DNA of 43,102 nt from Candidatus Nanohaloarchaea archaeon (GTDB taxonomy: Archaea; Nanohalarchaeota; Nanosalinia; Nanosalinales; Nanosalinaceae). Every line of letters starts with the position of its first letter. The first letter of the stretch is position 1. The DNA is taken from positions 14,845 through 57,946 of the forward strand of contig JBEQAY010000001.1 of assembly GCA_041640075.1 (NCBI GenBank). Reading direction: 5' to 3'. The position numbers and the translations under genes are program-made. Below, in pieces: positions 190 to 19,591 of the stretch. Below the pieces are notes generated by a model. It was not told the origin of the DNA and searched no databases. It saw only the letters and a list, made by a program, of their open reading frames with translations.

Positions 190-2613
190 TTAACGTGGGG
201 CCTCTCCCAGGACCTCATCAGGAATGTACTCTCCTCCCTGACCCTCTCTGTGCTCCTGAAGATACTCGTTGACATGTTCAATTAGATCGTCCATTCTGTG
301 CATGTCATCTGTAATTGAATCAACAGTTGAGCTGAACTCGTTCTCTGAGACACCCAGTACTTCGTTGAACTGTGTGCAGAGGTCTTCAACCTTCTTTACT
401 TTTGTTCTAATCTTAGACATCTTGCTATGGATATCCTTCAACTCTTCTCTGATCTTGTTCTCATGCTGGTAGGAGTTCTCAATCTCATCTATCATCTCCT
501 GCTTGGTCTTCGCACCTTCTGTGAAGTCATTCATGTCCTCTACTATACCTGTAAACAGTTCAGCCTGATCGTGGACGTCGTTAAGCTCATTCTGAACGCT
601 GGTTACTTCCTTTTCAATCTTGTCTTTCAATCTCCTAGCTTTTTGGAAATCAAGTTTATCGAAATCATCTACGAACTGAGAAAGCGCATCGATGTCCTCT
701 TCGAGACTTTTTAGCTCTTGTTCGTCAAACTTTACAATCTTTGTACCTTCGTTTGCCATATCATCATTATCGTTTTGCGGGTTTTTATTACCTGTCCCTC
801 CTGACTCATCGCCGTCGTCTGAATCATCCTCATCCAGTAATCGAATAAGCAGTCTCCTGGTGATAACACCTTCCTGTCGTATCCTCTGAAGTATCCTCTG
901 GCGCTCGGCCTGAGGATTACCTGAGTGCTGTATATCCTCTACAAGCTTGATTATCAACGGGTCGTTCATGTCTACGTTCACTTGAACACCGTCATTTCGT
1001 AGGGAACGGATTTCAGCGGTCAGATCCTGGAAGATCTGGTCGTCAACCTGTAGATCTCTTACAGCGGACTCTATGTCATCCAGTTTCTGTTCGACATCGC
1101 TGAGATCACCGCCCTGAGACTGAATCTGTGTAACCGCCTGCTCGATGTTGTCTAGCCTGTTTGTAACCTCTGAAAGATCGATGTCGTTGTCTTCGATTGC
1201 CTGAACTATCGCATCTTCATCGAAGCCGTCGCCGAGATCCAGTCCCTGGATCACGCTCTGAAGGTCCTGTCCAAAGACATCGTGCAGAACAGTTCTCAGC
1301 GCACTTTCAAGATCATCTGAAGACATCCCTCCACCGCCCATTTGCTGTCTTATCTGACGGAGTTCAGCAACTATCTGCTGGTTGTCACCGCTGTCCAGGT
1401 CAACTCCCAGAGCGTTCAGTGCGAAAAGAAGCTGATACGCATCCATCCCAACCCTTGCAGTCTCACTGTCGCTGCCGGAGCTGTCCACCTGCTCCAGGAT
1501 CTGCTCCAGGATGCTCATGACCTCTTCGTCTCCCTGGAAACCGCCGAGATCGCCGAGATTGTTGTTAGTGTTCTGGTTAATTATGCGTACAAGCTCCGGA
1601 TAATCATCTCTGGAGCCTCCACCGCCACCTTCGCCCTCAATCTGGAAGGTGCCTCTATCCGTATCTTGGCGGTCACTCGTAGCTGCAAGTCCTTCATATT
1701 CATAGGTTCCTGGAGAGAACTCCTCTGTAACCTCAACCCTGTCACTATCACTTGAATCTCCTTTCCAGTCCTCGGCACCGACGGGTCTGAACTTTATAGT
1801 CGTACCTTCAATTTCTGCTGGACTTGATATAACCTCAGCCCAGAGTCTTACCCTTCCATTTTCCTCATCTACTACTTCATGACCGGCTTCGACCTCTAGA
1901 TTCCCTTCATGATGCCCTCTTATCCTGAAAGTACCGGTTTTTTCGACAGAGCTGGTTTCCCCGTCCGTGGTTTCAGCCCTGTACCGGTATCCCTCACCAG
2001 ACGGTATACCTGTCTGGCGTACGCTGGCCGTGCTGTTGCCTGTAGAAGTATCAGAGACTTCAAAGTCTGGTAATTCAACCTGAGTTTCCTGGATAGAATT
2101 ATCTCCTGGAGTAGGCCTAGCCGTAACAGTGACAGCGCCGTTATCCTCGCCGGGATCAGCATCCTGTGTCTCGACATCTACTTCAAGATCAGGCCCTTCC
2201 GGTTCATCAGGTCTGCTCGGGTTGAAGCTTATTGAATCGTCTGCCGTGCCGTATGTAGCGCTGACCTGGATATCACATTCTACAGTATCTACGTCAGGGA
2301 CTTCGATAGTATCTGTTGCAAAAGTACCTCCGCTCCAGCTAGTTACCTTACCGGAAATATCTCTTCCGTTCATAGTCAGCGAGTAATCGGATATAGAACC
2401 ATCGCCCGAATCGTAACTTCCTCTCAGCGCGAATCTTTCCCCTATAGTGGTATTGCCCGTCTCCCGCATCGAGACTGAAGGGCCTTCATCCCTTGAAGTT
2501 CCTCCGCCGCCTCCGCTGCTCTTCGAAACCTTGTCCTTCCAAAGAATGGCTAGTATAATTACGGCCATAACGAGAAGTCCTATCCAAAGGTTGTCCGGTA
2601 GGCCGTACGCCAT
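190..2613 (-). CDS. Hypothetical membrane-anchored protein (N-terminal TM, beta-rich Ig-like region, helical region, C-terminal coiled coil)
   Basis: 807-aa ORF; TM LWIGLLVMAVIILAILW; Gly linkers; heptad-like C-terminus; TTATAA box at ~2635-2642. Confidence 0.85.
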   Translation of the reverse strand: MAYGLPDNLWIGLLVMAVIILAILWKDKVSKSSGGGGGTSRDEGPSVSMRETGNTTIGERFALRGSYDSGDGSISDYSLTMNGRDISGKVTSWSGGTFATDTIEVPDVDTVECDIQVSATYGTADDSISFNPSRPDEPEGPDLEVDVETQDADPGEDNGAVTVTARPTPGDNSIQETQVELPDFEVSDTSTGNSTASVRQTGIPSGEGYRYRAETTDGETSSVEKTGTFRIRGHHEGNLEVEAGHEVVDEENGRVRLWAEVISSPAEIEGTTIKFRPVGAEDWKGDSSDSDRVEVTEEFSPGTYEYEGLAATSDRQDTDRGTFQIEGEGGGGGSRDDYPELVRIINQNTNNNLGDLGGFQGDEEVMSILEQILEQVDSSGSDSETARVGMDAYQLLFALNALGVDLDSGDNQQIVAELRQIRQQMGGGGMSSDDLESALRTVLHDVFGQDLQSVIQGLDLGDGFDEDAIVQAIEDNDIDLSEVTNRLDNIEQAVTQIQSQGGDLSDVEQKLDDIESAVRDLQVDDQIFQDLTAEIRSLRNDGVQVNVDMNDPLIIKLVEDIQHSGNPQAERQRILQRIRQEGVITRRLLIRLLDEDDSDDGDESGGTGNKNPQNDNDDMANEGTKIVKFDEQELKSLEEDIDALSQFVDDFDKLDFQKARRLKDKIEKEVTSVQNELNDVHDQAELFTGIVEDMNDFTEGAKTKQEMIDEIENSYQHENKIREELKDIHSKMSKIRTKVKKVEDLCTQFNEVLGVSENEFSSTVDSITDDMHRMDDLIEHVNEYLQEHREGQGGEYIPDEVLGEAPR

Positions 2614-2694: not shown

Positions 2695-3330
2695 TCACAT
2701 CCAGTCCGAGTTCCATTCATCATCGTCCTCCCATTCATCATACACATCATCTGAATTCGTCTCAGTTCCTTCAGTTTTCCACGAGTCTGGTTCATCCAGT
2801 ACGACCTGGTTCCCCATGTTCCAGTTGTTTGCGGGTTGTTCCGAGAGCACCTGATTGCCCCAGTTTACGTTTCCTCCTGCGAAGATGATATCTCCGTCAT
2901 CGGTTTCCTCCAGTTCATCGAGCTCCTCCAGCATTCCTTCGATTATATCGTTTGCTTCGTCAAGGTCCTCTGCCTTCTCCCTGTAGAGAGACTCCCATAG
3001 AACCGCGTATGCATCAGTTCTACCGTTACTGCTATTTACGTCGTCCACCAAATCCGAGACCCTTCCTACTATGTCCTCGTCGAACTGCTCGCCGCCCATG
3101 ACCTGCTTGTAGAGCTTGAACCTCTGATCGTGGAAGTCGTCATTATGGAAAATATACTCGGCGATATCTGCGAACGCCTTTGCATCGTCCTGAGGCGCTT
3201 GCTCCACATATACAGCTGCTCCCAGTGCCTCGAGATCAGCAGTATCGTACATCTCCGGGTTCTCGTCCATGTACTGCTGTCCCAGAGCCTCCAGTTCATC
3301 CTGACTTGGGTAATCATCTGCAGCCGACAT
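2695..3330 (-). CDS. Acidic hypothetical protein, paralog of the C-terminal half of 3449-4447
   Basis: Start MSAADDY at 3330 with SD GAGGTG at 3341-3346; shares MGGxQxDEDI and WExLYREKA motifs with its neighbour. Confidence 0.85.
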   Translation of the reverse strand: MSAADDYPSQDELEALGQQYMDENPEMYDTADLEALGAAVYVEQAPQDDAKAFADIAEYIFHNDDFHDQRFKLYKQVMGGEQFDEDIVGRVSDLVDDVNSSNGRTDAYAVLWESLYREKAEDLDEANDIIEGMLEELDELEETDDGDIIFAGGNVNWGNQVLSEQPANNWNMGNQVVLDEPDSWKTEGTETNSDDVYDEWEDDDEWNSDWM

Positions 3331-3349: not shown

Positions 3350-3369
3350 TTGTTATCTAAGAGTAACAA
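3350..3369. promoter_or_regulatory. Palindromic operator candidate TTGTTA-N8-TAACAA
   Basis: ttgtta tctaagag taacaa, just downstream (minus strand) of a TTAAATA box at ~3371-3377. Confidence 0.7.
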
Positions 3370-3448
3370 CTATTTAATATGTTGTGGTATTTACCTGATT
3401 TTTCGGAGAACTCCTGAACTTGTAGAAAAATAAGAGGGAAAATGTGGT

Positions 3449-4447
3449 TTAGAGGTTTCCTGCGAGGCTGTCGATGTCGTCTGCTTTCTGTGACTGTGCC
3501 TGTTCTGTGTTCTCTGCGATCTGAAGTCCTGTTCTGGATGCCTGAAGTCTTGAGTCGTCTCTGTCTAGTCTTGAGACTTCGTTCAGCATGCCTTCGATGA
3601 CTTCCTGTGATTCCTCGTTGTCTGCTGCTTTCTCTCTGTAGAGTGCTTCCCAGACAAGTGTGTCTGTTTCAAGTGCCTGCTTGACGTCGTTTACCTCGTC
3701 TACTGCGTCGCCTACGTTTCCTGGGATGTCTTCGTCGTACTGGTCTCCTCCCATCTGTCCCTTGTAGCGCAGGAATGCGTCGCCGTTGAATGCGTCGCCG
3801 TAGTTGTCGATGAACTCTGCAAGCTCTGCTGTTCCTATATCGTCGTACTGTCCCTCTTCCATGTCCTTGAGTACTCCTGCAGTTCCAAGAGCAACCTGTT
3901 CGTCGAGGTCAAGGTTGTAGAGATCGTCGTCTGCTACATCCTCGTATTCATCCAGGTTTTGATGATGTTCGACAGCTACTGCATGCGCAGCAGTTGTAGG
4001 TACGTTATCGTATTCTTCGTCTGTCATGTCATTGTCACCTCCTGTATCATTTGATCCAATCGGTTTTGACTCAATAGTATCATTTTCCTGTGGAACACCG
4101 CCTTCGAATACCCTGTCGGTGAGTTCCGAGCTGAAACCTGTTTCGGCCTCTCCAGGTTCTCTGAGCTCTCCGACAAGCCAGATGTTGTAATTTTTGTCTT
4201 CTCCACCTGCCAGAAGTACTTTGTCGCCGGTCAGGTCGGCTTCCATATCAAACTCGTCTTCAGGATCATATTCTGCACCGTTCCTGGTTGGAACTGTAAG
4301 GCTGTCGATGTAATGGCCCTTTGCAAGCCTTTCTCCTGTCGCCAGTCCTGTTCCTTCTCCCTCTACAACAAGGGTTCTCTCAACTCTTTCACCGTCTTCC
4401 TCATAGGTTCCCTCGAACAGCTTTACAGTGTCGTAGTTCATGAACAT
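3449..4447 (-). CDS. Acidic two-domain hypothetical protein; possible internal in-frame start at 4027
   Basis: ORF to 4462, likely ATG at 4447; C-terminal half paralogous to 2695-3330. Confidence 0.85.
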   Translation of the reverse strand: MFMNYDTVKLFEGTYEEDGERVERTLVVEGEGTGLATGERLAKGHYIDSLTVPTRNGAEYDPEDEFDMEADLTGDKVLLAGGEDKNYNIWLVGELREPGEAETGFSSELTDRVFEGGVPQENDTIESKPIGSNDTGGDNDMTDEEYDNVPTTAAHAVAVEHHQNLDEYEDVADDDLYNLDLDEQVALGTAGVLKDMEEGQYDDIGTAELAEFIDNYGDAFNGDAFLRYKGQMGGDQYDEDIPGNVGDAVDEVNDVKQALETDTLVWEALYREKAADNEESQEVIEGMLNEVSRLDRDDSRLQASRTGLQIAENTEQAQSQKADDIDSLAGNL

Positions 4448-4472
4448 TACAAACCACCACACCCAATCTTTT

Positions 4473-4490
4473 TATTAGCTTTTAGTAACA
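4473..4490. promoter_or_regulatory. Operator candidate TATTA-N8-TAACA (1 mismatch)
   Basis: tatta gcttttag taaca, adjacent to a minus-strand TATA-like TATATTT at ~4490-4496. Confidence 0.6.
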
Positions 4491-4569
4491 AATATACCCG
4501 GCTTCGAGAGAGTGTGCAACTTTTAGCAGCTTCAGCAGAGAAATTAATGAAAAAATTGTTGGAAGTGTT

Positions 4570-6309
4570 TTACCACTCCTTTCTGAGGATTACTGCCGAG
4601 ATAAGGAGGCCCAGGATTACTGAGATTGCCAGTTTTGTGATGTCTCCCAGTGCCTGGATTGAGGTTACTGCCTGATTGAACATTCCTGTGATTCCTCCGC
4701 TCCTGTCCTTCAGAGAGTCCCTGACTTCTTCTCCTAACCTGAGCTGTACGGTCTCTTCCTCTTCTACCATCTCTCCTGATGCACGGACTGTGATGTCCTC
4801 TGTTCCTTCTACCTGGTCGTAAGGGATCCCTGCGTAGATGTAGGACTTCCCTGTTTCTCCGGAGTCAACGTTAACTACTTCTGGCCTGATTGAGATCCAG
4901 TCAGGTCCTTCACCACTTACCCTGTACTCGTTCTTCATTGTTCCTGTGTTTTCAAGGTGGATCTCGTAGAGCACGCTTCTGTTCTCTCCTGCGCTCTGGA
5001 TGTTCGGCACAACATCCATGTCGAGGTTGTAGCAGTCCTCTACAGTGAAGCTTGAGGTTGCTGTCTTGCTTGGTTCAGCGAACGTGTCGGACTGTACATC
5101 GACTTCTACGTTGTATGAATCTCCTACAGTGTACTCTGAGGAGTTGAAGTCGATCTCAAGCCTTCTTGTTTCGCCCGGATCAAGTTCTACAGATTCCTCC
5201 GAGATGCTTCCTCTGGAACTGGAGACGCTGTAAGTATCTGATGCCTCTCCTGTGTTCTCTACTGTGACCTGCTTCTCGAATCTCTCGTCTTCACATACGT
5301 TCTGTGAACCGCTTTCGAAGTTCACTGATACATCCTGACCGTTGTAAATATCTAGCTGGGCACTTGCAGAGCTGGTTGATTCTCCTTCTGCTGTAACCCT
5401 GATTGTTCTATCCTGAAGCTGTTCAGGCGTGTACTCCACAGTAGTTGTTCGTGAGTCTCCTGCAGCGATGTCAAGTTCTGTGTCCTCAAGCTCTCCGTAG
5501 TTTGTGGAGAGTGTGAAGCTGTCGGATCTTGTTCCCTGGTTCTGTACTGTGACATCGAACTCTGCTTCTGTCAGTGCTGCTGATCTCTGGTTTTCAGGGC
5601 TTATTGTGGTGCTTGACTCGTAGCAGTTCTCTGCCTCGAAAGATGTTGAGGTGACGTCTTCTGCGTAGCTGGAAGTAGATTCTGCTTTGATGTTGAAGGA
5701 GCGGTCGTTTACCGCAATTCCTGAAGATCTTGTTAGCTCAACTGTTTCTGTCTCTCCTTTATCAACTCTAACTTCTTTCTGTGAGAAATCTCCTGCATCA
5801 GCACTCATCCTGAAAACTTCTTCCTGAGTACCTGAATTACTTACAAAAACTGTGTAAACTGCTTCTTCGCCCCGGCAAACAGATCCAGGGTTTTCAACTT
5901 CTATATCAACGTTATGATCTCTTATTACTTCTACTGTTCCTTCTGTACTGTACGTCTCCTCTGTAGCCTGTGACTCTGCATCTATCCTGAAGGTGTACTG
6001 TCCTTCCTGTCTGTCAAGGTTCGGGTTGAACCATACCTGAACTGTCTGTGACTCTCCAGGCTCCAGATTTCCTTCTTCAGGGACCTGGCCTGGTGCGACT
6101 CTTATTTCGTCAGAATGTGTGGATGAAATATCGTATATGTCTTCAACTGTACCCGTATTAGTTATTTCTACCTCATAGGAAGTGAAAGAATCTACTTTAA
6201 CAGATGAATGGTCTGGAAAAATATCAAGATCTGCTGTACTTGCTGCTGCAAGATTAAGGGTTAGTAATGCTGCAATTGTAATTATACCAATTTTGTGAAG
6301 CCGTGTCAC
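4570..6309 (-). CDS. Surface protein with ~5 Ig-like (CARDB/NEW3, COG1470-like) domains and a C-terminal TM anchor
   Basis: Signal peptide; repeated V-x-V-x-N-x-G-x3-D-x-Y motifs; VC...CY Cys pairs; C-terminal TM plus RKEW; GTG start with SD AGGTGA. Confidence 0.85.
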   Translation of the reverse strand: MTRLHKIGIITIAALLTLNLAAASTADLDIFPDHSSVKVDSFTSYEVEITNTGTVEDIYDISSTHSDEIRVAPGQVPEEGNLEPGESQTVQVWFNPNLDRQEGQYTFRIDAESQATEETYSTEGTVEVIRDHNVDIEVENPGSVCRGEEAVYTVFVSNSGTQEEVFRMSADAGDFSQKEVRVDKGETETVELTRSSGIAVNDRSFNIKAESTSSYAEDVTSTSFEAENCYESSTTISPENQRSAALTEAEFDVTVQNQGTRSDSFTLSTNYGELEDTELDIAAGDSRTTTVEYTPEQLQDRTIRVTAEGESTSSASAQLDIYNGQDVSVNFESGSQNVCEDERFEKQVTVENTGEASDTYSVSSSRGSISEESVELDPGETRRLEIDFNSSEYTVGDSYNVEVDVQSDTFAEPSKTATSSFTVEDCYNLDMDVVPNIQSAGENRSVLYEIHLENTGTMKNEYRVSGEGPDWISIRPEVVNVDSGETGKSYIYAGIPYDQVEGTEDITVRASGEMVEEEETVQLRLGEEVRDSLKDRSGGITGMFNQAVTSIQALGDITKLAISVILGLLISAVILRKEW

Positions 6310-6316
6310 AGGTTAT

Positions 6317-6334
6317 TGTCACCTGATAATAACA
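6317..6334. promoter_or_regulatory. Operator candidate TGTCA-N8-TAACA overlapping the SD
   Basis: tgtca cctgataa taaca, between the TATATAAAAA box (~6345-6354) and the start codon. Confidence 0.6.
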
Positions 6335-6394
6335 CTTGTATTTATTTTTATATATCAATTGATAGTGAAAGATATTTCTCACTGTAAAGTCGTA

Positions 6395-9300
6395 TCAAAT
6401 CAGTTTCGATAGAAGTCCTTCGTCGCGTTCCTGTCGTGTATCTGTTGAACTAATTCTTATTTCCCTAGCAAACTCCTCTCCATCTGCTGATGCTGTTATT
6501 TCAGGTGTAAACTCTCCTGCTTCCTGTGGTGAAAAGTAGAAGTAGACTGTCTTCCTTTCTCCTGGCGCCAGAACAACGTTATCATCAGTTATTGACACCC
6601 AGCTATCAGGGATGTCACTTACTGCTACCTCGTAGTTCCTGACTTCGTTTCCTTGATTGTATACTGTCATCCTGGCCTGTCCGGGCTCTGTGTTCCTGAC
6701 CGTTACCTGTCCTGGGAAGGTATCAAACTCTTCTCCAGCCTCTATAACCTCTACATTTTTGCTGGCGGATCCTGTCTCCCCCGAGGTCGCAGCCCGAACC
6801 CAGAATCTTTTCCCACCGCTCAATCCAGCAGTTACTTCGAAGCAGACTCTACCAGAACCAGCGCGAGAGTCCAATCTCTCGCCGTCCCGGAAAAGTATTA
6901 CCTCCGGTTCAGTATCGGAGGAGACATCTGCACAGATCTCGAAGTCCTCTCCCTCAACCGCTTTCGCCGGCGCATCCAGTCTTGAAATACGGGCTCTCGG
7001 TAGCACCTCCAGCTGTCTCTTGGTCGAGAAGCCTCCTGCAGACACTGTGAACTCCTTCATTCCTGAACTTGAAGGAGTGTAGAACACTGTGTAGCCACCT
7101 GAACTCGTGGTTGAAACCGTCTTGCCGAATCCCTGTGTACTGACCGTCACATCTACAGGTCTGTTCACGTTCTGTACATCACCAGTAATTCTTACGGTTT
7201 CACCTGTGAGGACTTCAGTAGGATTTACTTGTGCTGAAAGACCTGTAGGAATATTCCTGTCTCTTTCAGCTCTGTCAGTACAGTCCTGTACTTCTACACT
7301 CCCCTCCCTGAACTGTATTCCGCCGTTTTCAACCCTTACAGTAAACTCTCCGTCATCCAGTTCTTCGACATCTCTGAAAACTACTTCAACTTCCTCTGTT
7401 TCATCTTCATCAATCTCAATTAACTCTTCGTCCGTTTCCGCTCCGAGTCCTGTTCCAGAGACCTCAAACTCTTCATCATCTTCAAAGTTTGTGATCTCAA
7501 CCTCAACAGTCAGGTCTTCTCCTATGCAGACTTCATCGCTATAGGAAAGTGAGAAATCAAAGTCCCCTATCCTTTCAAGCCTGAAGTTTAATAATTCAGT
7601 TTCATCTTCTTCGAGCTCTACATCCCTTTCTTCAGTTCTGTAGCCGTCTTTTGAAGCCCTTACCTCGTATTCATCAGGTTCAAGTTCGAAATCAACTTCA
7701 CCATCGTCATCAGTATACTTTACCTCTGTATCGCCGTTTTCCACTCTCACTCTCGTATTTTCAAGATTTCTGGACTCCTCGTCTCGGACTCTTACCTCGA
7801 GGTATGCGTCATCGCCCCTTTGATCTTGCCGGGAGCTAGCTCGAAAATCCACGACTTCTATGTTTGATTCTTTCGATTCATCTCCTGCCTCTGCAATAGC
7901 CCTAAACTCCGTTAGACCGGTGCGTTCTGCTTCATAATCCTCCTCTATCTCGCATCTGGATCCAAAGCAGCTTACTTGCTCAAATGTATCCCAGCTCTCA
8001 AACCTTCTTTTCTCTTGAAGTCGGAGATTATCAAGATTCTTGCCCCTTGCCGATGCAGAAATCTCTATTTCCCTCCGTACCGGGTATTCATCCTGTAGAC
8101 CATCTAGGACGACCGAAGAAACCTCAGATTCACCTGATGAGATTTCATCTATAAATTCCACTGTTTCAACACTGCTTTCGGCTTCTCCCTCCTGTGAAAC
8201 CGCTTTTATACGGAAATCATATTCTAGTTCCTCGTTAGAAATAAAAGAAGTTTCTATAGAGCATTTAATTTCACTACACGCCACAGTTTCCTCATCTTCC
8301 CAGGTCTGGTGCTTTCTACTCTGTACAATAAGGTTCTCAAGATCTATCCCTACTGCAGACCCCTTTATTTCAAGGCGGTCATCTACAGGATACTGATCTG
8401 GAAGATCCACAATACTTACGTCTGAAATACCATTCTCAGGGTAGAAAACCGTCTCAGTAGTGGCGGAAGTAATGCTTTGACCATCTGAATAGGCCTTAGC
8501 TCTGAATGTTTCAGTCCCTGATTCATCTGTACTGTAAACAGTTTCAACCTCACATGACTGTGAAGGACATTCTCTAGAGTAAATCTCTTCCCAGGAACCT
8601 CCTGACTTCCTTTCTACCGCTAAATCATCTGCATTACCCTCAAGCTCCGCACTCACTGTTATCTCTTGATCTACACGTGCTTCCTCAGGCGATGAAATTT
8701 CGATACTATCGATTAAATCATTGATATCAGATTGCCTGAATTCGACGACTTCAATACCTGATATCTTTGTTCTACCTCCAGCAGTTCCTTTAATCCTGAA
8801 TTCGACATTACCTGTTTGATCTGTAGTATATTGAGTCGTAATAGTACAGATACTGCCCTCACAGTTGTTTGAATCCACATAATTCCAAGAAGAAAACCTT
8901 CTTTTCTCCTGTATCTCTATTTTATCTAGATTTTCTCCCTCCATAGATCCTGAAACAGTAAGTGGTGTGTTTAGTCGGTTTTCTGAGCCTAATTCATCTA
9001 TTGCTATCGAAGAAATCCGATTTCTTATATAGAAACCTACAGTTTCTGTGTCTGAGTACCGGGTATCGTCACCTGCTCTCGCCTTTACTCTAAAGTCTTT
9101 TTCTGTCGTTTCAGTAGCTGTATATGTTGTTGAGATGCTGCACGTGGAGGAGTCTCCACACTCTACGAGTTTTATCTGCTGCCATCCACCGTCACCACGT
9201 TCCTGTACAGTAATTTCATCTAGATTATTCCCTGAGGCCTCTCCTTCAATATTCAAGGATTCTCCCACCGGTTTATCTGCGGGAAGATTTTCTATCGATA

Positions 9301-12300
9301 CACTGTTAACCCTGTCCTCTGGCTGCGGTTCTTCATCTTCTTGGTCTTGGAAATCCACTGTTTCTAAACTGGTTTCCATGTTTGAATTTCCTGCTTCTGC
9401 CCTGATTCTGAAGTCCACGGTTCCTTCCTCATCTTCAATGTAGTAATCGGTGATCTGGCAGCTATTTCCGGAACAGGTGCTTGTCTCAACGTTCTGCCAG
9501 CTTCCGGATTTCCTCCTTTGAATCATTATCTCCTCAAGATTTTCACCTTCTGCATCCCCTATTATCTGAAGACTTTCATCCACAGGATAAGAATCTGGTA
9601 GACTGACTATGTTCACGGAGTCTACGCGGAACTCTTCTGTTCTGAAAAAGTTCACAACCTCGATGTTTGAGTATTCAGACTCCCCTCCTGCATAAGCTAC
9701 AAGCCTGAACTCCAGATTCTCGGTACTCTCAGGCTCGAAGCTTGTATCGAAGTTGCAGGTACTTGAACTGCTGCAACTCTTTGAAGTCTGTTGTGTCCAT
9801 GAACCAAATCTTCTCTTTGTCTGTAGAACTACCTCATTCAGATTTTCTCCTTCAGCCTTCCCTGAAACCTGCAAAGGGTCTGCGATATTCCCTCTATCAG
9901 GTATCTCATATAATACAACGTTCTGGACGCTGTAACTGATCCTAGACGTAAACTCTACGTTTTCAATGGTTGAAGAGCCAGAATCTCCTGTAGATTCAAC
10001 ATATGCACGGAAATACTTTTCACCTGTTGAAGCTGCGGAGTAGGTACGTTCTATGTCACAGCTATCCTGATTGCCGCAGTCTTCGGACCTCCAGCTATTC
10101 CAGTCATCTTCTTCATAGTTCTTCTCCTGTATATAGATTCTCTGTAGGTTTTCACCTGAGGCATCTGCTTCTATATCAAAGCTGTCTCCCTTCTGAACGC
10201 TTGCAGGAAGATTATTTATACTCACAGAATCAACCTGCCCTTCATTGTCAATAAATTCGACATTTTCAATGTTAGAGTACTCCACATCACCACCTGCTTC
10301 TGCACGTATCCTGAAACTTTTTTCCTCCTCTGTATCTGTAATGTAATCTCTGTTTATCTGGCAATTATCCTGATTATTGCATTCCTTTTCTCTATAGCTG
10401 TCCCAGCTGTCATCTTCATAATCTCTCTCCTGGATTGTAATAGTGTCAAGATTCTCTCCCTCAGCTTCTCCAACTATCTCAAGGGATCTGCCAGTGCTGT
10501 ATTCCTCCGGTAAATCGTTTATATCTACGTTTTCAACTCTATCTTCATCCTCTACGAACTCCACTGTTTCTTTAGCAGAATAGTCTGTATGTTCATTGGT
10601 TTCTGCTTTGATACGGAAGTCTTTCTCCACTTCTTCGTCCTCATTGAATTCCCTGCCTATTTCACAGCTGTTGGCACCATCACAGTCCGTTGAACGCCAT
10701 TCGTTCCAGTCATCCTCATCTGCATCTTTCTCCTGTATTGTCAATACTTCAAGATCTTCCCCCTCAGCCTCTCCAACTATCTCAAGATCTTCATCCGTGG
10801 GATGACTGTAGGGCAGATCTTGGATAGTTACCGCATCTATAGTATCTTCCTGAAAGTCAACTGTCTCTATACCTGAGATATCATAATCATCGCCGGCTTC
10901 AGCTCTCAGACGGAAGTCCACTTCCTCATCATGATTCTGACTGTAATCATAGCCGAAATCACATTTACTGCCGCTGCATGAATCTGTTTCAACTCGTTCC
11001 CAGTCCTCTCCAGGATCCCTCTTCTGAAGTATGATTCTCTCCAGGTTCTTCCCATCTGCATCCCCCATGATATCCAAATCCTCATTTGTTGGATGGGTAG
11101 ACGGGAGGTTATCTATATCTACATCGTCTACCCTGTAATCTACTCTATCGTAGAACTCCACAGACTCTATATTAGAGGATTCTGAGCTGTCTCCAGCATA
11201 GGCTACAAGCCTGAACTCCAGATTTCCTGTTCTCTCAGGATTAAATTCGTAATCGAAACCACATTCGTCATCATTCCCACAGTTTTCAGATTCTACATCA
11301 TCCCATGATTCGAACCTCTTTTTGGTCTGAAGTACTATCTCATCTAGATTATTTCCTGAGGCATCACCTGTCACCTGAAGATCCTCGTCCACATCACGAC
11401 GGTCTCCCAGCTCATCAAGATTAACACTGTCAACAGAATCTGATTCAGGTGTTTCATCTTCACTCCTGATAAAATCAACATATTCTGAATCAGAACTATC
11501 AGAGTCATCTCCTGCCTCTGCATACGCTCTAAATTCTTTTCCTCCAGTTCCCACAACATCATAATTTCTTACAAGCACACAGTCTCTTCCGCCATCACAG
11601 TCTGTAGAACGCCAGTCCGTCCAGACCGATTCGCCCGGTTCTTTCTCCTGTATATAGATTCTATCCAGGTTTTCACCTTCTGCTTCAATTTCTATATCAA
11701 AACTTTCTCCTTCTTCAACTTCCTCAGGTAGATCATATATCCTGACATCATCTACAGCTCCTTCATTCCCTGGTAAAGATGTCCTGCTCACAGAGGTTCT
11801 TGCAGTAACGCCGCCTTTGAATTTCACCAGTCCACGGAAGCTAGCTGTTCTTTCGTCCAGTTTTTCCGCATCTAGGTATGTTGAACCACTGTTTGAGCAT
11901 CTTCCTGATGTATAACTGTTTGAACAGTCTCTCGTATCAAAGCTGTGCCAATCACCGTCGTCTCCGAGATACTGCAGATGAGCAGTCCCTTCATCATCAA
12001 ATCTTTCAGCAGAATCCTCTGCTGTCACACTCATACTGACTCTACTTCCACTAGATGCGGTCTGAGGTGGTTTATTTGTCCATGAAACACCGTAATCTAG
12101 ATTATGGTAGTACGTGACTTCCTGATACCTGGTGTTCTCTCCACCATCACCTGACTGTATCCTAAACCGGTATTCGAAAGTCCTGGAATTACTTTCAGAG
12201 TGTTCAAAGCTCCAGTCGCATCCGCCATAGTTGCTACATGTTTTCGTCCTGCGGTCTGTAAACACTTGTTCACCTTGTTGACGGGACTGAAAGAGAACTT

Positions 12301-12454
12301 GGTCAATGTTCGAACCTTCAGAGGTCATCGAGAACTGTAGATCTTCACCTACCTGCCAAGCAGACGGAACTTCATCAAAAGAAGCCTCGGTGACCGACGC
12401 TGAGGCTATGGAAATGAAAAGAGCAAAAACAAGAGCAGCAAGTATCTTTTTCAT
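6395..12454 (-). CDS. Giant secreted surface protein (~2,019 aa): 15 tandem ~100-aa Cys-pair repeats, then PEGA/CarboxypepD-reg-like and Ig-like domains
   Basis: Start MKKILAALVFALFISIASA with SD GAGGTG; repeat consensus visible in the translation; C-terminal ~480 aa paralogous to 13033-14589. Confidence 0.9.
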   Translation of the reverse strand: MKKILAALVFALFISIASASVTEASFDEVPSAWQVGEDLQFSMTSEGSNIDQVLFQSRQQGEQVFTDRRTKTCSNYGGCDWSFEHSESNSRTFEYRFRIQSGDGGENTRYQEVTYYHNLDYGVSWTNKPPQTASSGSRVSMSVTAEDSAERFDDEGTAHLQYLGDDGDWHSFDTRDCSNSYTSGRCSNSGSTYLDAEKLDERTASFRGLVKFKGGVTARTSVSRTSLPGNEGAVDDVRIYDLPEEVEEGESFDIEIEAEGENLDRIYIQEKEPGESVWTDWRSTDCDGGRDCVLVRNYDVVGTGGKEFRAYAEAGDDSDSSDSEYVDFIRSEDETPESDSVDSVNLDELGDRRDVDEDLQVTGDASGNNLDEIVLQTKKRFESWDDVESENCGNDDECGFDYEFNPERTGNLEFRLVAYAGDSSESSNIESVEFYDRVDYRVDDVDIDNLPSTHPTNEDLDIMGDADGKNLERIILQKRDPGEDWERVETDSCSGSKCDFGYDYSQNHDEEVDFRLRAEAGDDYDISGIETVDFQEDTIDAVTIQDLPYSHPTDEDLEIVGEAEGEDLEVLTIQEKDADEDDWNEWRSTDCDGANSCEIGREFNEDEEVEKDFRIKAETNEHTDYSAKETVEFVEDEDRVENVDINDLPEEYSTGRSLEIVGEAEGENLDTITIQERDYEDDSWDSYREKECNNQDNCQINRDYITDTEEEKSFRIRAEAGGDVEYSNIENVEFIDNEGQVDSVSINNLPASVQKGDSFDIEADASGENLQRIYIQEKNYEEDDWNSWRSEDCGNQDSCDIERTYSAASTGEKYFRAYVESTGDSGSSTIENVEFTSRISYSVQNVVLYEIPDRGNIADPLQVSGKAEGENLNEVVLQTKRRFGSWTQQTSKSCSSSSTCNFDTSFEPESTENLEFRLVAYAGGESEYSNIEVVNFFRTEEFRVDSVNIVSLPDSYPVDESLQIIGDAEGENLEEIMIQRRKSGSWQNVETSTCSGNSCQITDYYIEDEEGTVDFRIRAEAGNSNMETSLETVDFQDQEDEEPQPEDRVNSVSIENLPADKPVGESLNIEGEASGNNLDEITVQERGDGGWQQIKLVECGDSSTCSISTTYTATETTEKDFRVKARAGDDTRYSDTETVGFYIRNRISSIAIDELGSENRLNTPLTVSGSMEGENLDKIEIQEKRRFSSWNYVDSNNCEGSICTITTQYTTDQTGNVEFRIKGTAGGRTKISGIEVVEFRQSDINDLIDSIEISSPEEARVDQEITVSAELEGNADDLAVERKSGGSWEEIYSRECPSQSCEVETVYSTDESGTETFRAKAYSDGQSITSATTETVFYPENGISDVSIVDLPDQYPVDDRLEIKGSAVGIDLENLIVQSRKHQTWEDEETVACSEIKCSIETSFISNEELEYDFRIKAVSQEGEAESSVETVEFIDEISSGESEVSSVVLDGLQDEYPVRREIEISASARGKNLDNLRLQEKRRFESWDTFEQVSCFGSRCEIEEDYEAERTGLTEFRAIAEAGDESKESNIEVVDFRASSRQDQRGDDAYLEVRVRDEESRNLENTRVRVENGDTEVKYTDDDGEVDFELEPDEYEVRASKDGYRTEERDVELEEDETELLNFRLERIGDFDFSLSYSDEVCIGEDLTVEVEITNFEDDEEFEVSGTGLGAETDEELIEIDEDETEEVEVVFRDVEELDDGEFTVRVENGGIQFREGSVEVQDCTDRAERDRNIPTGLSAQVNPTEVLTGETVRITGDVQNVNRPVDVTVSTQGFGKTVSTTSSGGYTVFYTPSSSGMKEFTVSAGGFSTKRQLEVLPRARISRLDAPAKAVEGEDFEICADVSSDTEPEVILFRDGERLDSRAGSGRVCFEVTAGLSGGKRFWVRAATSGETGSASKNVEVIEAGEEFDTFPGQVTVRNTEPGQARMTVYNQGNEVRNYEVAVSDIPDSWVSITDDNVVLAPGERKTVYFYFSPQEAGEFTPEITASADGEEFAREIRISSTDTRQERDEGLLSKLI
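7841..12395 (-). repeat. Array of 15 protein-level tandem repeats, ~303 bp each
   Basis: Consensus V-x2-V-x-I-x2-LP...G-x-A-x-G-x-NL-x2-I-x2-Q...W-x7-C-x4/5-C...FR-x2-A-x-AG...S-x2-E-x-V-x-F; repeats 1-2 are diverged. Confidence 0.85.
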
Positions 12455-12468
12455 ATTTTTACACACCT

Positions 12469-12954
12469 CTAGCAGGCACCCTCTACATTGTAGCCTCGCT
12501 CAACGACGTATTCAGCTTCTGCACCGAATTCTCCGGAGTAATCAGGGTCTACTTCCATCCTAAGCTCAGAATCGCTTTCCCTGAACCTCACTTCGCGGCC
12601 TACATAGTCGAAAAAATCATCCCCATCAAGGTTATCATAGGAGTCAACTTTCTGTACTAGTTCCTCTTTTTCACCTTCATCCAATCTACAATTTCCAGGT
12701 AAAGCTTCTTCCCAAGATCGGATCTCATAATCTGATTTATAGGGAGTCTCACTCGCACCATCAGAGCCCTTACCATGTTTATCTTCTCTACCATCTCGAG
12801 GTGTACCTCCATCTTCGTGATGCCAAAGCCCTCTGTAAATTTCAAATGCCTTCCAAAGTGTTGCTCCGCCAGCCCCAGTAATTGCAAGTCCTGCCAGTAT
12901 ATTGGCGCCTCTTCTACTTAACTGATATTCTTCTCCATCTTCCCCAGCCGACAT
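12469..12954 (-). CDS. Small exported or membrane-anchored hypothetical protein, first gene of an operon with the giant protein
   Basis: Start MSAGED; LSRRG followed by a hydrophobic stretch; two Cys; stop is 14 bp from the next start. Confidence 0.75.
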   Translation of the reverse strand: MSAGEDGEEYQLSRRGANILAGLAITGAGGATLWKAFEIYRGLWHHEDGGTPRDGREDKHGKGSDGASETPYKSDYEIRSWEEALPGNCRLDEGEKEELVQKVDSYDNLDGDDFFDYVGREVRFRESDSELRMEVDPDYSGEFGAEAEYVVERGYNVEGAC

Positions 12955-12959
12955 ATGTT

Positions 12960-12977
12960 TGTTACTAAATAATAACA
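12960..12977. promoter_or_regulatory. Operator candidate TGTTA-N8-TAACA (perfect)
   Basis: tgtta ctaaataa taaca, between a TTTAAG box (12978-12983) and the ATG at 12954. Confidence 0.7.
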
Positions 12978-13032
12978 CTTAAATCATTGATTATACTCCT
13001 GTATATTTTTCTCCATCTCAGATTTCAAGAAA

Positions 13033-14589
13033 TCAAAACATTAGACTGAGCATGATAAACGCAATATTATAGACATCGAGTGAAGAGTCCCTGTACTGTG
13101 GGCTTGAAGTTGAGAAAACCTGGAGATCATCAGAGTAAATCTCATCTCCCTGCGATTCCACACTTAGAGACGCCGTGAACTCTCCACTCTCACCCGGAGA
13201 AAGATAGAAGTAAACTGTTTCTCGCTCCCCTTTATTCACTGAGACGTTCTGTACTGGATCTGAAAGCCATTCTGAAGGGATATTCTGAAGTTTTACAGTA
13301 TAATTTCTCGTGTTTTCATTAGTGTTGTAGAGCTCGACCTTTACCAGGCTGTCCTCAGTCTCTACCGATGAAACCTGTCCAGGAAAGCTTTCAGCCTCAG
13401 GCCCCTGTTCCAGAACGTTTACTTCCTTGCTGGAAGATGCATCACTGCCGTAGGTCAATGCCCGGATCTCGTAATTGTATTCCCCTGATTCAGGAGCCTG
13501 AATTTCGAAGCAGACATTTCCTTTTTCCTGCCTGGACTCTATGACCTCGCCATTCTGAAGCAAGACAACTTCAGGTATGACAGAGGAATCTACCTGTCCG
13601 CATATCTCAAAGTTTTCGCCTGAAAACACCTCATTTTTTGCTTCCAGCTGACTTACCTTCGGGTCTGGTACGGCTTCAAAAGTTGCTGAGTCGGATACAC
13701 GTGGTGTTGATACCGTCACTGTTTTTGAACCGCTTGTTTCTGGCCTAATGAAGGTCTGGAAGTATCCGTCACGGCCTGCCTGTATAGTGCGCTTCTCTTC
13801 ACCGTTTATACTCATGTTCAGTTCTACAGCCCCTCTTGCACCATCAGCAAATCCTTTTATTCTTACTACTTCTCCTACCGAAGCCTTTTCACGTCCCTCT
13901 ATAGGGTATACATTCACATCTATATTTTCTACAGAAGCAGGGCTTCCCGGAACCACACAGTCGTCTATCTGGACAGTTCCCGTAGCCGAGTCAGAGTCAG
14001 TGTTGGATGCTGAGACACGGAAATCCTGTTCCCCTGTGCCTCTTACACCTGTGAATATGAATCGGTAAGTTCTTGTCTGGCCGGAGTTGATTACGAAGCT
14101 TTTTCCTGCAAGAACCTTTCCGAAACCGAATCCTGTTGTGGAGACGACCTGTCGTTCGTCGCCCGTATTTTCTATATCAAAGTCTACGGAGAAGCTTTCA
14201 CCCCTGCAGATCCTTTCAGGACTGTTCAGTCTTGTGATCCGGATATCGGAATCTGTGTCCTCGTCTTCATCTTCTTCAGCCATCGAGAAACTGTAGCTCG
14301 CATCAGCATCTTCCTGAACCAGTATCTGGCGTTGAATTGTTTCATAACCTTCTTTACTTATTTCAATGTCGTATTCTCCGTCTTCAAGATCTCTTTCAAA
14401 TACATCTATGTTATTTCTTTCTAAAGTTGTTCCTTCGCCTTCCACAGTTATGTCAAAATTTTCTATTTCCTCACCTGTTGTGGATACAGCTTCTATAGTT
14501 ACTGTTGCTGCAGCAGCTCCTGTTAAGGCTACCAGAAAAACTGTACAGAGCATATACTTTGTGATCTTGCCTTTTTTCATCAGGTTCAT
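13033..14589 (-). CDS. Secreted surface protein with PEGA-like and Ig-like domains and a hydrophobic C-terminal tail
   Basis: Signal peptide ending LTGAAAA; GEYDIEISKEGY PEGA-like motif; TTTAAG box ~26 nt upstream of ATG 14589 (start could be 14580 or 14610). Confidence 0.85.
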   Translation of the reverse strand: MNLMKKGKITKYMLCTVFLVALTGAAAATVTIEAVSTTGEEIENFDITVEGEGTTLERNNIDVFERDLEDGEYDIEISKEGYETIQRQILVQEDADASYSFSMAEEDEDEDTDSDIRITRLNSPERICRGESFSVDFDIENTGDERQVVSTTGFGFGKVLAGKSFVINSGQTRTYRFIFTGVRGTGEQDFRVSASNTDSDSATGTVQIDDCVVPGSPASVENIDVNVYPIEGREKASVGEVVRIKGFADGARGAVELNMSINGEEKRTIQAGRDGYFQTFIRPETSGSKTVTVSTPRVSDSATFEAVPDPKVSQLEAKNEVFSGENFEICGQVDSSVIPEVVLLQNGEVIESRQEKGNVCFEIQAPESGEYNYEIRALTYGSDASSSKEVNVLEQGPEAESFPGQVSSVETEDSLVKVELYNTNENTRNYTVKLQNIPSEWLSDPVQNVSVNKGERETVYFYLSPGESGEFTASLSVESQGDEIYSDDLQVFSTSSPQYRDSSLDVYNIAFIMLSLMF

Positions 14590-16755: not shown

Positions 16756-17712
16756 TTACCTTCCCTGTACTTGTACGTTGGTCCTTGTCTCCTTGATGTA
16801 TCCGTAATCAGCGTCTACTCTGATCGGAACTGTTCTCTGCAAGGTGTCGGACACACCATCGATTTCCATGTTAAAGCATCCTACACCTCTGCCGTCAAGG
16901 ATGGAGACGTTCTGGTAGTTCTGCTCGTTTGCATCTGAAACTTCAAACGTTACATCTCCTACATCTTGGATCTGTATCTGTAGCTCTCCCTCTGTATCCT
17001 GAATTCCTGACATGTCAAAGTCTGTAGAGTCTGGAACTTGACCTGGGTGGAAAGGCTGACCTTCTCCCTGATTTCTGGCGATAACACAGAACTGCTTCTG
17101 AACTGAAGATGAACCTGTGTCGTAAATCGGGATTGGAGTTGGTGTCCTGACCTCCATCTGTACAGGAGCGTCTGAGTTTTCAAGTCCAGTTGATCCTTGA
17201 GGACTTCCTTGATCTCTGTACTGATCTTCTCCCATTATCTGCACCTCAGCTGTTCCTGTCGTAGAGTAATTGAAAACTATGTTTGAGTTGAACGTGTAGT
17301 CAACATTCCTATCTGGACCTAGGCTTGGTGATTCAAAATCAATCTGCCGCGTCTGCGGTACTGCGGGGGTCTGTTCTCCTGCTGCTCGTAGAGTCCCATA
17401 TTCAAGTGTTCTGTATTCGGTACTCATACTTCCACTCGTCGGCTTCCAGACCTGATCTCCAGAGTCACCGAATGGAGGATTATATAGTCTTGCATAGACA
17501 TTCCCGGCATCTGTCTCACCATCATTCACCAGTTCCATCCTGAACTGGGTGTTCTGTCCGGCGGGCACAGGATTGGGAAAAGGAGAGAACTCGCTCACTG
17601 TTATTGAGCTTGAACCCTGATCTTCCTCTTGATTTCCTCCTCCGGTGCACCCGGATACTATAATGGTTAGAAGCATTAGAGCCAGTACTATCTTATTCTT
17701 CGCGTCTTTCAT
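16756..17712 (-). CDS. Putative lipoprotein, paralog family member 3
   Basis: Lipobox-like IIVSGC after a hydrophobic core; beta-rich. Confidence 0.85.
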   Translation of the reverse strand: MKDAKNKIVLALMLLTIIVSGCTGGGNQEEDQGSSSITVSEFSPFPNPVPAGQNTQFRMELVNDGETDAGNVYARLYNPPFGDSGDQVWKPTSGSMSTEYRTLEYGTLRAAGEQTPAVPQTRQIDFESPSLGPDRNVDYTFNSNIVFNYSTTGTAEVQIMGEDQYRDQGSPQGSTGLENSDAPVQMEVRTPTPIPIYDTGSSSVQKQFCVIARNQGEGQPFHPGQVPDSTDFDMSGIQDTEGELQIQIQDVGDVTFEVSDANEQNYQNVSILDGRGVGCFNMEIDGVSDTLQRTVPIRVDADYGYIKETRTNVQVQGR

Positions 17713-19578: not shown

Positions 19579-19591
19579 CCAATTACTGTTT

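Follow-up and report, generated by a model that had tools for sequence, protein, structure and literature searches.

A palindromic, probable operator in front of surface-protein and lineage-specific genes of Nanohaloarchaeota, and a TrmB-like candidate for its repressor

Repressors of the TrmB family bind downstream of the TATA box, and the part of PMC4158304 covered here gives several sites for them: TATCAC-N5-GTGATA as the glycolytic motif of TrmBL1/Tgr in Thermococcales, TACT-N3-AGTA for TrmB of Pyrococcus and TACT-N7-8-GAGTA for TrmB of Halobacterium. In the same part TrmBL2 is described without a sugar-binding domain. TrmBL2 (TK0471) is a chromatin repressor of many hypothetical genes which binds both coding and intergenic DNA, and for which the part of PMC3031468 covered here reports that a consensus was not found. 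For nanohaloarchaea it has been proposed that giant surface proteins with a VirB4-like ATPase inject effectors, none of which is named in the sections of PMC10266531 used here; these sections also report a 50-fold increase of host glucose-6-phosphate and a share of hypothetical genes of more than one third in nano-sized symbiotic archaea. Haloferax has a vesicle-forming GTPase operon, ArvABC/OapABC (PMC10927574, covered in part).

We analysed a stretch of 43,102 nt (the window) of the genome of a nanohaloarchaeon close to Ca. Nanosalina, which is labelled G000; other G numbers denote comparison genomes. The original prediction was that the palindrome TGTTA-N8-TAACA is shared by four consecutive promoters of surface and structural genes, each with a TATA-like box ahead of the site, and is read by one factor encoded elsewhere. 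It named enrichment over shuffled DNA and conservation at orthologous promoters as checks. All four sites have the sequences and positions that were claimed (Table 1), and since the genes below them are all on the minus strand, the invariant TAACA indeed faces the TATA box. The TATA-like box was present at three of the four sites. For operator 1 it is TATTAAAT (3372-3379, minus strand), with the hexamer starting 9 nt ahead of the site; at operators 3 and 4 this distance is 18-20 and 5-6 nt, respectively. At operator 2 the TATA pattern had no match, and just a weak TATATT abuts the site. The distance to the ATG of the downstream gene is 20 nt for operator 1 and 25 nt for operator 2. Operator 4 lies directly behind its TATA box (TTTAAG, 12978-12983) and 5 nt ahead of a leaderless ATG, which is the modal geometry of the regulon. 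The sole other match above 6 bits in the window (position 4065, 8.6 bits) is within a coding region, so that the motif is absent from the remaining promoters of the window; the original prediction had noted this for housekeeping promoters.

Table 1. Operators and genes of the window, numbered from its first nucleotide
Feature	Position	Strand	Remarks
211-aa acidic cytoplasmic protein (28% D+E)	2695..3330	-	downstream of operator 1
Operator 1	3351..3368		perfect; 22.7 bits, matrix from other genomes
332-aa acidic cytoplasmic protein	3449..4447	-	downstream of operator 2
Operator 2	4473..4490		one mismatch (TATTA); 14.4 bits
579-aa tandem Ig-like surface protein	4570..6309	-	N-terminal signal, C-terminal membrane helix
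Operator 3	6317..6334		TGTCA half; 7 nt ahead of Ig-gene GTG; TATA ~6345-6354
Putative second operator of Ig gene	6353..6370		36 bp upstream, over BRE
2,019-aa secreted repeat protein	6395..12454	-	13 repeats of ~101 aa
161-aa acidic protein, twin-arginine-like signal	12469..12954	-	SRRG..L + Ala/Gly helix
Operator 4	12960..12977		perfect; 22.5 bits

The two cytoplasmic proteins are paralogues (42% over 113 aa), in agreement with the prediction. No Pfam or PHROG family matched the 211-aa protein, and searches of Pfam, PHROG and Atlas for a function of the pair gave no match and only 10 close homologues. The 332-aa protein is limited to the genus (3 of 61 genomes) and has a conserved C-terminal domain and a variable N-terminus; its AlphaFold model was unusable (pLDDT 34.5). 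The paralogue locus of G005 has no site of at least 6 bits. The Ig-like surface protein is the most conserved target, being found in 44 of 61 genomes and in 37 of 40 within the family. In its operator, the Shine-Dalgarno sequence GGTGA coincides with the gene-proximal half-site, which accounts for the TGTCA deviation. The site at 6353..6370 scores below 3 bits here and 9-12 bits in G001, G004 and G010, and is likely a second, weak operator of this gene. The repeats of the 2,019-aa protein contain W-x-C-x-C; its C-terminal end carries an Ig region and no ATPase match was obtained. Its gene has no operator of its own and is likely co-transcribed with the 161-aa gene behind operator 4, because only 14 bp lie between the two. 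A gene with such a twin-arginine-like (RR) signal ahead of a large surface gene is also present in G001, G010 and G014.

On a genomic scale the motif had to be redrawn. Instead of a half-site of 5 bp around N8, the consensus is an 18-letter palindrome with a half-site of 6 bp, TGTYAY-N6-RTRACA, and instead of four promoters it covers about 30 genes in G000 and occurs in 65 of 70 Nanohaloarchaeota genomes (259 sites vs 36 for a reversed control pattern). With the spacer of 8 there are seven perfect sites in G000, and 0-2 with any other spacer from 0 to 20. Intergenic segments hold six perfect sites (0.17 expected) and 17 sites with at most one mismatch (4.2 ± 2.3 expected), both above every one of 60 dinucleotide shuffles. 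TGTYAY dyads number nine at spacer 6 and 0-1 at the other spacers tested (2-10), and an unbiased search ranked TTGT-N12-ACAA as the top spaced dyad (34 vs 3.7). A matrix from 49 sites, none of them of G000 or G001, gave 42 of 1,128 G000 genes a site of at least 10 bits within 110 bp, compared to 4.7 for 30 permuted matrices. The genome holds 42 strong sites, 40 of which are outside ORFs, and is ~91% coding. An excess of TACT-N6-AGTA (25 vs ~13) was dismissed, as all 25 copies are in coding DNA.

The operator of the Ig gene is retained at 26 of 30 orthologous promoters, and syntenic genes of G001, G004, G010 and G014 also bear sites, all counted over kin genomes which are not independent. Of 19 site-bearing G000 genes for which G001 has a reciprocal orthologue, only five retain a site of at least 8 bits, a number that takes in divergent housekeeping neighbours. 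The TATA signal peaks at -30 to -28 relative to the ATG, and the modal site begins 6 nt past the first letter of the TATA hexamer and leaves 4-5 nt to the ATG; these distances are blurred by some wrong starts from our own hexamer-based ORF caller. Among 81 strong sites of three genomes, a TATA-like hexamer was upstream of 39 and downstream of six, the pattern leaving 36 unclassified. Most sites occupy the position of a repressor, between TATA and start codon, as was foreseen. In archaea, a dimer sitting between TATA and start site prevents the recruitment of RNA polymerase. We consider it very probable that the palindrome is the operator of one repressor.

Lineage-specific orphans with acidic, cytoplasmic products make up most of the targets. 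Only 2 of 30 G000 targets, vs 156 of 672 other genes, have a signal or membrane helix, so the description 'surface and structural genes' suits the conserved core and not the majority. This core consists of the Ig surface protein, the repeat-protein unit and weaker sites at arvABC/oapABC and trmB; the rest are fast-turnover acidic cytoplasmic orphans, enzyme-like genes and proteins with a twin-arginine signal. The comparison genomes, for G000 including one of its own genus, have no homologue of 17 of 30 targets in G000 (135 of 672 others), of 16 of 25 in G001 (200 of 735) and of 16 of 21 in G010 (161 of 530, with 800 of 1,119 kb covered). The arvA promoter has a site of at least 3 bits in 28 of 30 cases and of at least 6 bits in 19, at a fixed position; in G000 the GTPase gene is followed by those for OapB and OapC. 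The regulon includes a polyprenyl-synthase-like gene, for which host origin was considered (9 close homologues). RR-signal genes carry a site in 7 of 13 cases vs 151 of 2,288, with an RR filter that was tuned once examples were known. In a count split by tatC, 5 of 17 RR-signal genes have a site in tatC-less genomes and 2 of 10 in tatC genomes, 20 of 27 being without one; no Tat translocase was found in the source assembly. In three genomes, all 16 ORFs above 1,300 aa start without a site of their own, so that giant proteins are not generally co-regulated, and the genes upstream of the largest ORF of G010 also lack a site.

The best candidate for the repressor is encoded on a contig other than that of the window, in line with the prediction. 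It is a TrmB-family protein of 283 aa (G000 C17:10302-11153), the gene of which is present in 31 of 31 genomes. It has an N-terminal winged HTH (PF01978, E 1e-19), in which 49 of the first 80 columns are invariant among 30 orthologues; these include Y50 and D51, which do not vary in 16 of 16 sequences and are named in Table 1 of PMC4158304 (covered in part). The sugar-binding domain PF11495 had no match in the G000 protein and is precomputed on many orthologues, and the fold matches the TrmB sugar-binding domain 2f5t (E 3e-6). In length and alignment the protein is like TrmBL2. Behind a distal TATA, the trmB promoter has a variant site in the same register, which reaches 6 bits or more at 29 of 55 loci (2.7 with permuted matrices, 0 of 300 reaching 29; 6.9% of all genes) and occupies one shared position in 45 of 55; it is weak in G000 (4.4 bits) and G001 (3.4 bits). 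We infer that trmB is autoregulated from the distal promoter; the site would also fit trmB as a target of another factor. Besides trmB, the only one of 23 regulator-like G000 genes with a conserved site is a genus-restricted RHH gene (G000 C5:123-518). It has a strong site in G000, G001 and G003 and was rejected as the regulator, since it matches strongly in no more than 3 of 61 genomes and weakly in five others; we count it as a target. Indirect evidence, from its co-distribution with the motif, its invariant recognition helix and the variant site in its own promoter, inclines us, with some reserve, to a TrmB-like protein as the binder, TrmBL2-like being the best candidate. Its specific binding and its inducer are uncertain, because TrmBL2, the nearest relative with a solved structure, has no known consensus and is described without a sugar-binding domain.

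An origin of the palindrome from AT-rich promoters, from Shine-Dalgarno sequences or from a basal element of promoters can hardly be right. Within the window alone significance is marginal (four sites vs 1.06 ± 1.09 by chance, 5 of 100 shuffles also giving four), and the operators of the Ig gene and arvA overlap the Shine-Dalgarno sequence in one half; but the excess is specific to the spacer and exceeds shuffles and permuted matrices, sites of at least 3 bits occur at only 3-5 of the 54-89 Shine-Dalgarno genes per genome, and less than 5% of promoters (37 of 804) bear the operator. The shuffles, the permutations and the range over 65 of 70 genomes already contradict it. Silencing of new or foreign genes, with the palindrome nucleating a TrmBL2-like filament on functionally unrelated targets, would suit the H-NS-like action of TrmBL2 on many hypothetical genes and the prevalence of orphans. 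It is nevertheless improbable: the GC (0.462 vs 0.468) and GC3 (0.462 vs 0.491) of the targets are near average, of 21 proteins scanned just two had PHROG matches, both weak, a strong site is present at only 17 of the 152 orphans that have a promoter to themselves, and the site is precisely placed and retained at the conserved Ig gene across genera.

A real operator read by another conserved regulator, for instance a small winged-helix or RHH protein (conserved at 76-87% between G000 and G001), would make trmB merely a target. The weakness of the G000 trmB site and the absence of a known TrmBL2 consensus speak for this, and not all regulators bind their own promoter. We find it somewhat unlikely, since none of the small winged-helix/RHH genes has a conserved site, the strong-site RHH gene is essentially genus-restricted while the motif is phylum-wide, the half-site resembles the TrmBL1 motif, and two regulators have dyads of their own: TTAGG-N4-CCTAA, at what we take to be suf-like and metal-transporter-like genes, and GTTCG-N8-CGAAC, at a presumably ArsR-like gene. 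Quite possible, if not our preference, is that the regulon serves the symbiont's own cell in starvation, detachment, dormancy or the remodelling of its surface, with the orphans staying in its cytoplasm and none being delivered to the host. Consistent with it are targets such as oapABC, a peptidase-S24-like gene, a desuccinylase and the RHH regulator, a match in an AT-rich stretch upstream of cdc6, the giant proteins without sites, and RR-gene sites that are independent of tatC. A stress programme would, however, be expected to use conserved genes, whereas ~60-75% of the targets are lineage-specific and the remainder diverge faster (46% vs 69% identity). A DNA-damage regulon was rejected, as sites are also missing from the radA-like and RPA-like genes identified in G001.

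Our preferred reading, with a probability of about one half, is that these genes are kept silent by one conserved dimeric repressor, most likely TrmBL2-like, and are released by a signal, which may be contact with the host. The TrmB-like dimer would bind the palindrome between TATA and start and block polymerase recruitment; a small molecule of the host might then act on its C-terminal domain and lift repression, which is the weakest step; and release would switch on surface adhesins, vesicle formation and host-acting proteins. A host-contact programme is a tentative part of this reading. Unlikely as a whole is its extension to an effector regulon of a DPANN symbiont, in which a TrmBL2-type repressor would sense the haloarchaeal host and free adhesins, vesicle formation by ArvABC and, by the dozen, lineage-specific proteins acting inside the host, including twin-arginine-signal proteins which a symbiont devoid of Tat would leave to the Tat system of the host. 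If true, candidate effectors could be read off from the motif in each genome of nanohaloarchaea. The findings bear on the switching of nano-sized symbiotic archaea between free and attached states and on their effect on hosts, and an operator shared across the phylum, for which a candidate repressor can be named, singles out ~30 genes per genome from dark matter. They would present a case of new orphan genes repeatedly joining one old regulator, with targets changing between genera.

Our literature search, with subscription papers and supplements beyond its scope, found no paper on this motif or on a nanohaloarchaeal regulon. The words 'promoter' and 'TrmB' are absent from the main text of PMC11803251 and PMC10266531; Table S5 of the former consists, in the part inspected, almost entirely of annotated genes, and no TrmB row was found in its file.

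As far as the covered parts of the cited papers describe them, several known systems resemble this one. Like that of TrmBL1/Tgr, the palindrome covers the start site behind BRE/TATA, with some sites upstream of the BRE; the half-sites are similar (TGTYAC here, TATCAC there), and both show autoregulation (here presumed) and a regulon of ~30 genes. In contrast, the spacer is 6 instead of 5, the candidate has 283 aa instead of 341, and orphans and surface proteins take the place of glycolysis among the targets. TATCAC dyads with spacers of 2-10 are missing from G000. A glycolytic regulon was rejected: enolase, pyruvate kinase and triosephosphate isomerase, chosen via sequence motifs, score below 0. 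A weak site is found upstream of the TATA box of ppsA (4.6 and 2.8 bits in G000 and G001, the two genomes covered). The best sites hold a TACT-N4-AGTA inner core, as in TrmB of Pyrococcus and Halobacterium, but the spacing differs, the outer TGT/ACA is most informative here, and this is not a sugar-transport regulon. The giant surface proteins of PMC10266531 belong to the same lineage as our large Ig-like surface proteins, and the orphan targets would be candidate effectors; however, the 2,019-aa protein gave no match to an ATPase, and the largest ORFs have no site. The gene order GTPase, OapB, OapC in G000 equals that of Haloferax ArvABC/OapABC, with the difference that a conserved weak operator is present here and that vesicle formation is a putative function in nanohaloarchaea. 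To TrmBL2 the candidate has a full-length profile match (E 5e-22, 260 positions), and the TrmBL2 structures (PDB 5bpd, 5box) take Foldseek ranks 1-8; what differs is the sharp, promoter-restricted operator with its presumed binder, and if this binder is right, a TrmBL2-type protein would have a defined operator.

The genes beside the four palindromes TGTTA-N8-TAACA, all of which were found where the original prediction of a repressor operator had placed them, lie on the minus strand in the order 161 aa, 2,019 aa, the 579-aa gene of a tandem Ig-like surface protein (Ig gene) and paralogues of 332 and 211 aa (see the table). The sites are 5 nt (161-aa gene), 7 nt (Ig gene), 25 nt (332 aa) and 20 nt (211 aa) from the starts. 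The site excess within the window alone was marginal (4 sites against 1.06 expected; 5 of 100 shuffles gave four). However, perfect sites in the genome carrying the window (G000) numbered 7 at a spacer of 8 and 0–2 at each other spacer from 0 to 20, and its intergenic DNA held 6 perfect and 17 near-perfect sites, far above the averages of 60 shuffles (0.17 and 4.2), the control that had been proposed. Together these settle the reality of the motif.

Coordinates of the features discussed (G000 unless another genome is named)
Feature	Location	Strand	Remark
Palindrome	window 3351-3368
Palindrome	window 4473-4490
Palindrome	window 6317-6334
Palindrome	window 12960-12977
161-aa gene	window 12469-12954	-	2,019-aa gene begins 14 bp after its end
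518-aa secreted protein	window 13033-14589
807-aa protein	window 190-2613
Lipoprotein-like and membrane genes	window 16756-24377
Pilus-like cluster	C1:848-14639
Second Ig579-like gene	C42:12-1478
TrmB-family gene	C17:10302-11153
GGDEF-domain gene	G020 L004:1673-2470
Palindrome match near cdc6	C25:1034-1051 (L047)		also G001 L056, G002 L032, G003 L026, G004 L019
TTAGG-N4-CCTAA	C8:5275-6375, C29:3786-4619; G001 L172, L173, L176; G010 L314, L348
Candidate regulator of TTAGG-N4-CCTAA	C6:421-774
GTTCG-N8-CGAAC	C47:1357-3610, C8:325-1433; G001 L175, L176, L183

An unbiased dyad count in the promoters of three genomes returned the palindrome as the top spaced dyad. The half-site is 6 bp and the full motif TGTYAY-N6-RTRACA with A/T flanks. 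Using a scoring matrix of 49 sites, none from G000 or the same-genus genome G001 but including sites of the relative G010, sites of at least 10 bits were detected at 42 of 1,128 genes (G000) and 45 of 1,178 (G001), where 30 permuted matrices gave on average 4.7 and 3.7; 40 of the 42 strong G000 sites were outside ORFs. The operator is phylum-wide: the strict pattern occurs in 22/31 relatives (control, 1/31) and a wider one in 65/70 genomes of the phylum (259 sites versus 36 for the reversed pattern). A literature search found no description of it.

A conserved G000 protein has its nearest named relatives in Ca. Nanosalina and other Nanohaloarchaeota. In G000, TATA peaks at -30 to -28 relative to ATG, and the majority of transcripts appear to be leaderless. 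The modal site starts immediately after the TATA hexamer and stops 4–5 nt short of the ATG. Among 81 strong sites, TATA was upstream in 39 and downstream in 6, the TATA pattern used leaving 36 unclassed; some promoters carry two sites, about 31–38 bp apart, which flank TATA. We infer that one dimeric repressor reads the palindrome (probability about 0.9). Bound just past TATA it would block polymerase recruitment, as is established in archaeal transcription for a dimer downstream of TATA (part of PMC4158304).

Conservation at orthologues, a check proposed with the original prediction, was observed for the Ig gene, present in 44/61 genomes: 26 of the 30 promoters examined (G000 among them) keep a site 3–13 nt before the start. 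The TGTCA deviation at this site is explained by its gene-proximal half, which also serves as Shine-Dalgarno sequence. G001, G010 and G014 share with the window the arrangement site, gene with twin-arginine-like signal (RR gene), large surface gene, site, Ig gene; in G010 and G014 the first site is followed by an additional orphan gene. The 332/211-aa pair is genus-specific (3/61 genomes); sites adjoin it in G004 and adjoin a syntenic gene pair in G001, which BLAST did not link to the G000 paralogues, and no site of 6 bits was seen at the short G005 paralogue locus.

Several neighbouring genes have no site. The 518-aa protein shares 32% identity with the last 450 aa of the 2,019-aa protein and is found in a rearranged position in G001. 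Three lipoprotein-like genes and membrane genes of 949 and 380 aa, without Pfam family, also lie in the same order next to the Ig locus of G001, G010 and G014. The 807-aa protein has an N-terminal membrane helix, a long coiled-coil-like tail and only weak, coiled-coil-type matches. Directly before the window, ATPase-like and membrane genes with small pilin-like ORFs (by eye) look like a type IV pilus or archaellum-like system; orphan genes, several with sites, lie in or next to this cluster in G000, G001, G010 and G014. A second Ig579-like gene is 85% identical to its G010 orthologue and 44% to the window copy; its contig (C42) is possibly a contaminant.

The targets are mostly not the surface and structural genes first supposed, since only 2/30 in G000 have a signal or membrane helix (other genes, 156/672). 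They are more acidic than other genes, and 17/30 lack a homologue in G001 versus 135/672 (p 2e-5); those with one share 46% identity, others 69%. Homologues were likewise missing for 16/25 targets versus 200/735 others in G001, and for 16/21 versus 161/530 in G010 (800 of 1,119 kb), whose sites contributed to the matrix. In a Pfam scan of 99 site-adjacent proteins, some of them divergent neighbours, most had no family; among the matches were GHKL and AAA ATPases, a GGDEF domain, RimK-like ligases, methyltransferases, APH kinases, a VRR-NUC nuclease, divergent polyprenyl synthases and Tat signals. The GGDEF diguanylate-cyclase gene (E 2e-33), in an archaeon, stands right behind a perfect site. 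The GTPase-oapB-oapC operon, named arvABC in Haloferax and required there for vesicle formation (part of PMC10927574), is a second conserved target: 28/30 of its promoters score at least 3 bits, at a fixed position, and 19/30 at least 6, while only 3–5 of 54–89 Shine-Dalgarno genes per genome reach 3 bits.

RR genes were enriched for the site (7/13 versus 151/2,288, with a filter tuned after examples had been seen; 7 of 27 scored genes from a group of 30 picked by profile, against 5% background). TatC was found in 7/31 genomes. Neither tatC nor tatA was found in G000 (assembly 89% complete), where the rpS7/EF-2 interval that holds both in G001 is assembled but empty; in G001 they sit in an accessory island with a Tat substrate. 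G012, G025, G029, G009 and G010 (90–98% complete) yielded no TatC and 3–13 Tat-signal matches each. A special link is disfavoured: the site at RR genes is no commoner without tatC (5/17 in tatC-less versus 2/10 in tatC-bearing genomes) and 0/16 ORFs above 1,300 aa have a site at their own start.

Rapid turnover of the targets and the presence of enzyme types modifying proteins or nucleotides fit host-directed proteins, and equally well a programme that serves the symbiont cell itself. Tentatively, and with the odds somewhat against it, a host-derived small molecule might release the repressor on host contact. Glucose-6-phosphate is 50-fold higher in colonised hosts, and injection of as yet unnamed effectors was proposed (both in section 11 of PMC10266531); a figure legend mentions pores between cells (PMC11803251).

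Two other dyads were noted. TTAGG-N4-CCTAA, conserved before suf-like and metal-transporter-like genes, resembles a DtxR-type site; GTTCG-N8-CGAAC precedes an ArsR-like gene and an adjoining divergent gene pair. About 200 bp upstream of cdc6, a palindrome match lies within an AT-rich stretch, likely a replication origin, between two inverted boxes with G-runs that we take to be ORB-like; the match either arose by chance among TGTTATA repeats or ties the regulator to replication start.

A credible candidate repressor is a TrmB-family protein, encoded in 31/31 genomes; 49 of the first 80 alignment columns do not vary, and the protein matches TrmBL2 full-length in sequence and fold. A same-register motif variant lies behind a second, distal TATA upstream of its gene, at the identical place in 45/55 loci; it reaches at least 6 bits at 29/55 named loci (2.7 under permutation; 6.9% of genes), is near-perfect in some families and weak in G000 (4.4 bits). 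Among 23 regulator-like genes in G000, only an RHH gene, essentially genus-restricted, also keeps a site. On balance we lean slightly towards the TrmBL2-like protein as the repressor, which would also restrain its own distal promoter.

The half-site resembles that of the TrmBL1 operator, although the TrmBL1 motif TATCAC-N5-GTGATA itself is absent and glycolytic genes lack sites, except for a weak one upstream of TATA at ppsA in the two genomes examined; a glycolytic regulon was therefore rejected. By analogy, the operator would act like that of TrmBL1, though on other genes. TrmBL2 keeps many hypothetical genes repressed, yet its binding yielded no consensus (part of PMC3031468), which counts both for and against a TrmBL2-like binder. 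The unusual regulon of orphans would represent a new variant of TrmB-type control.
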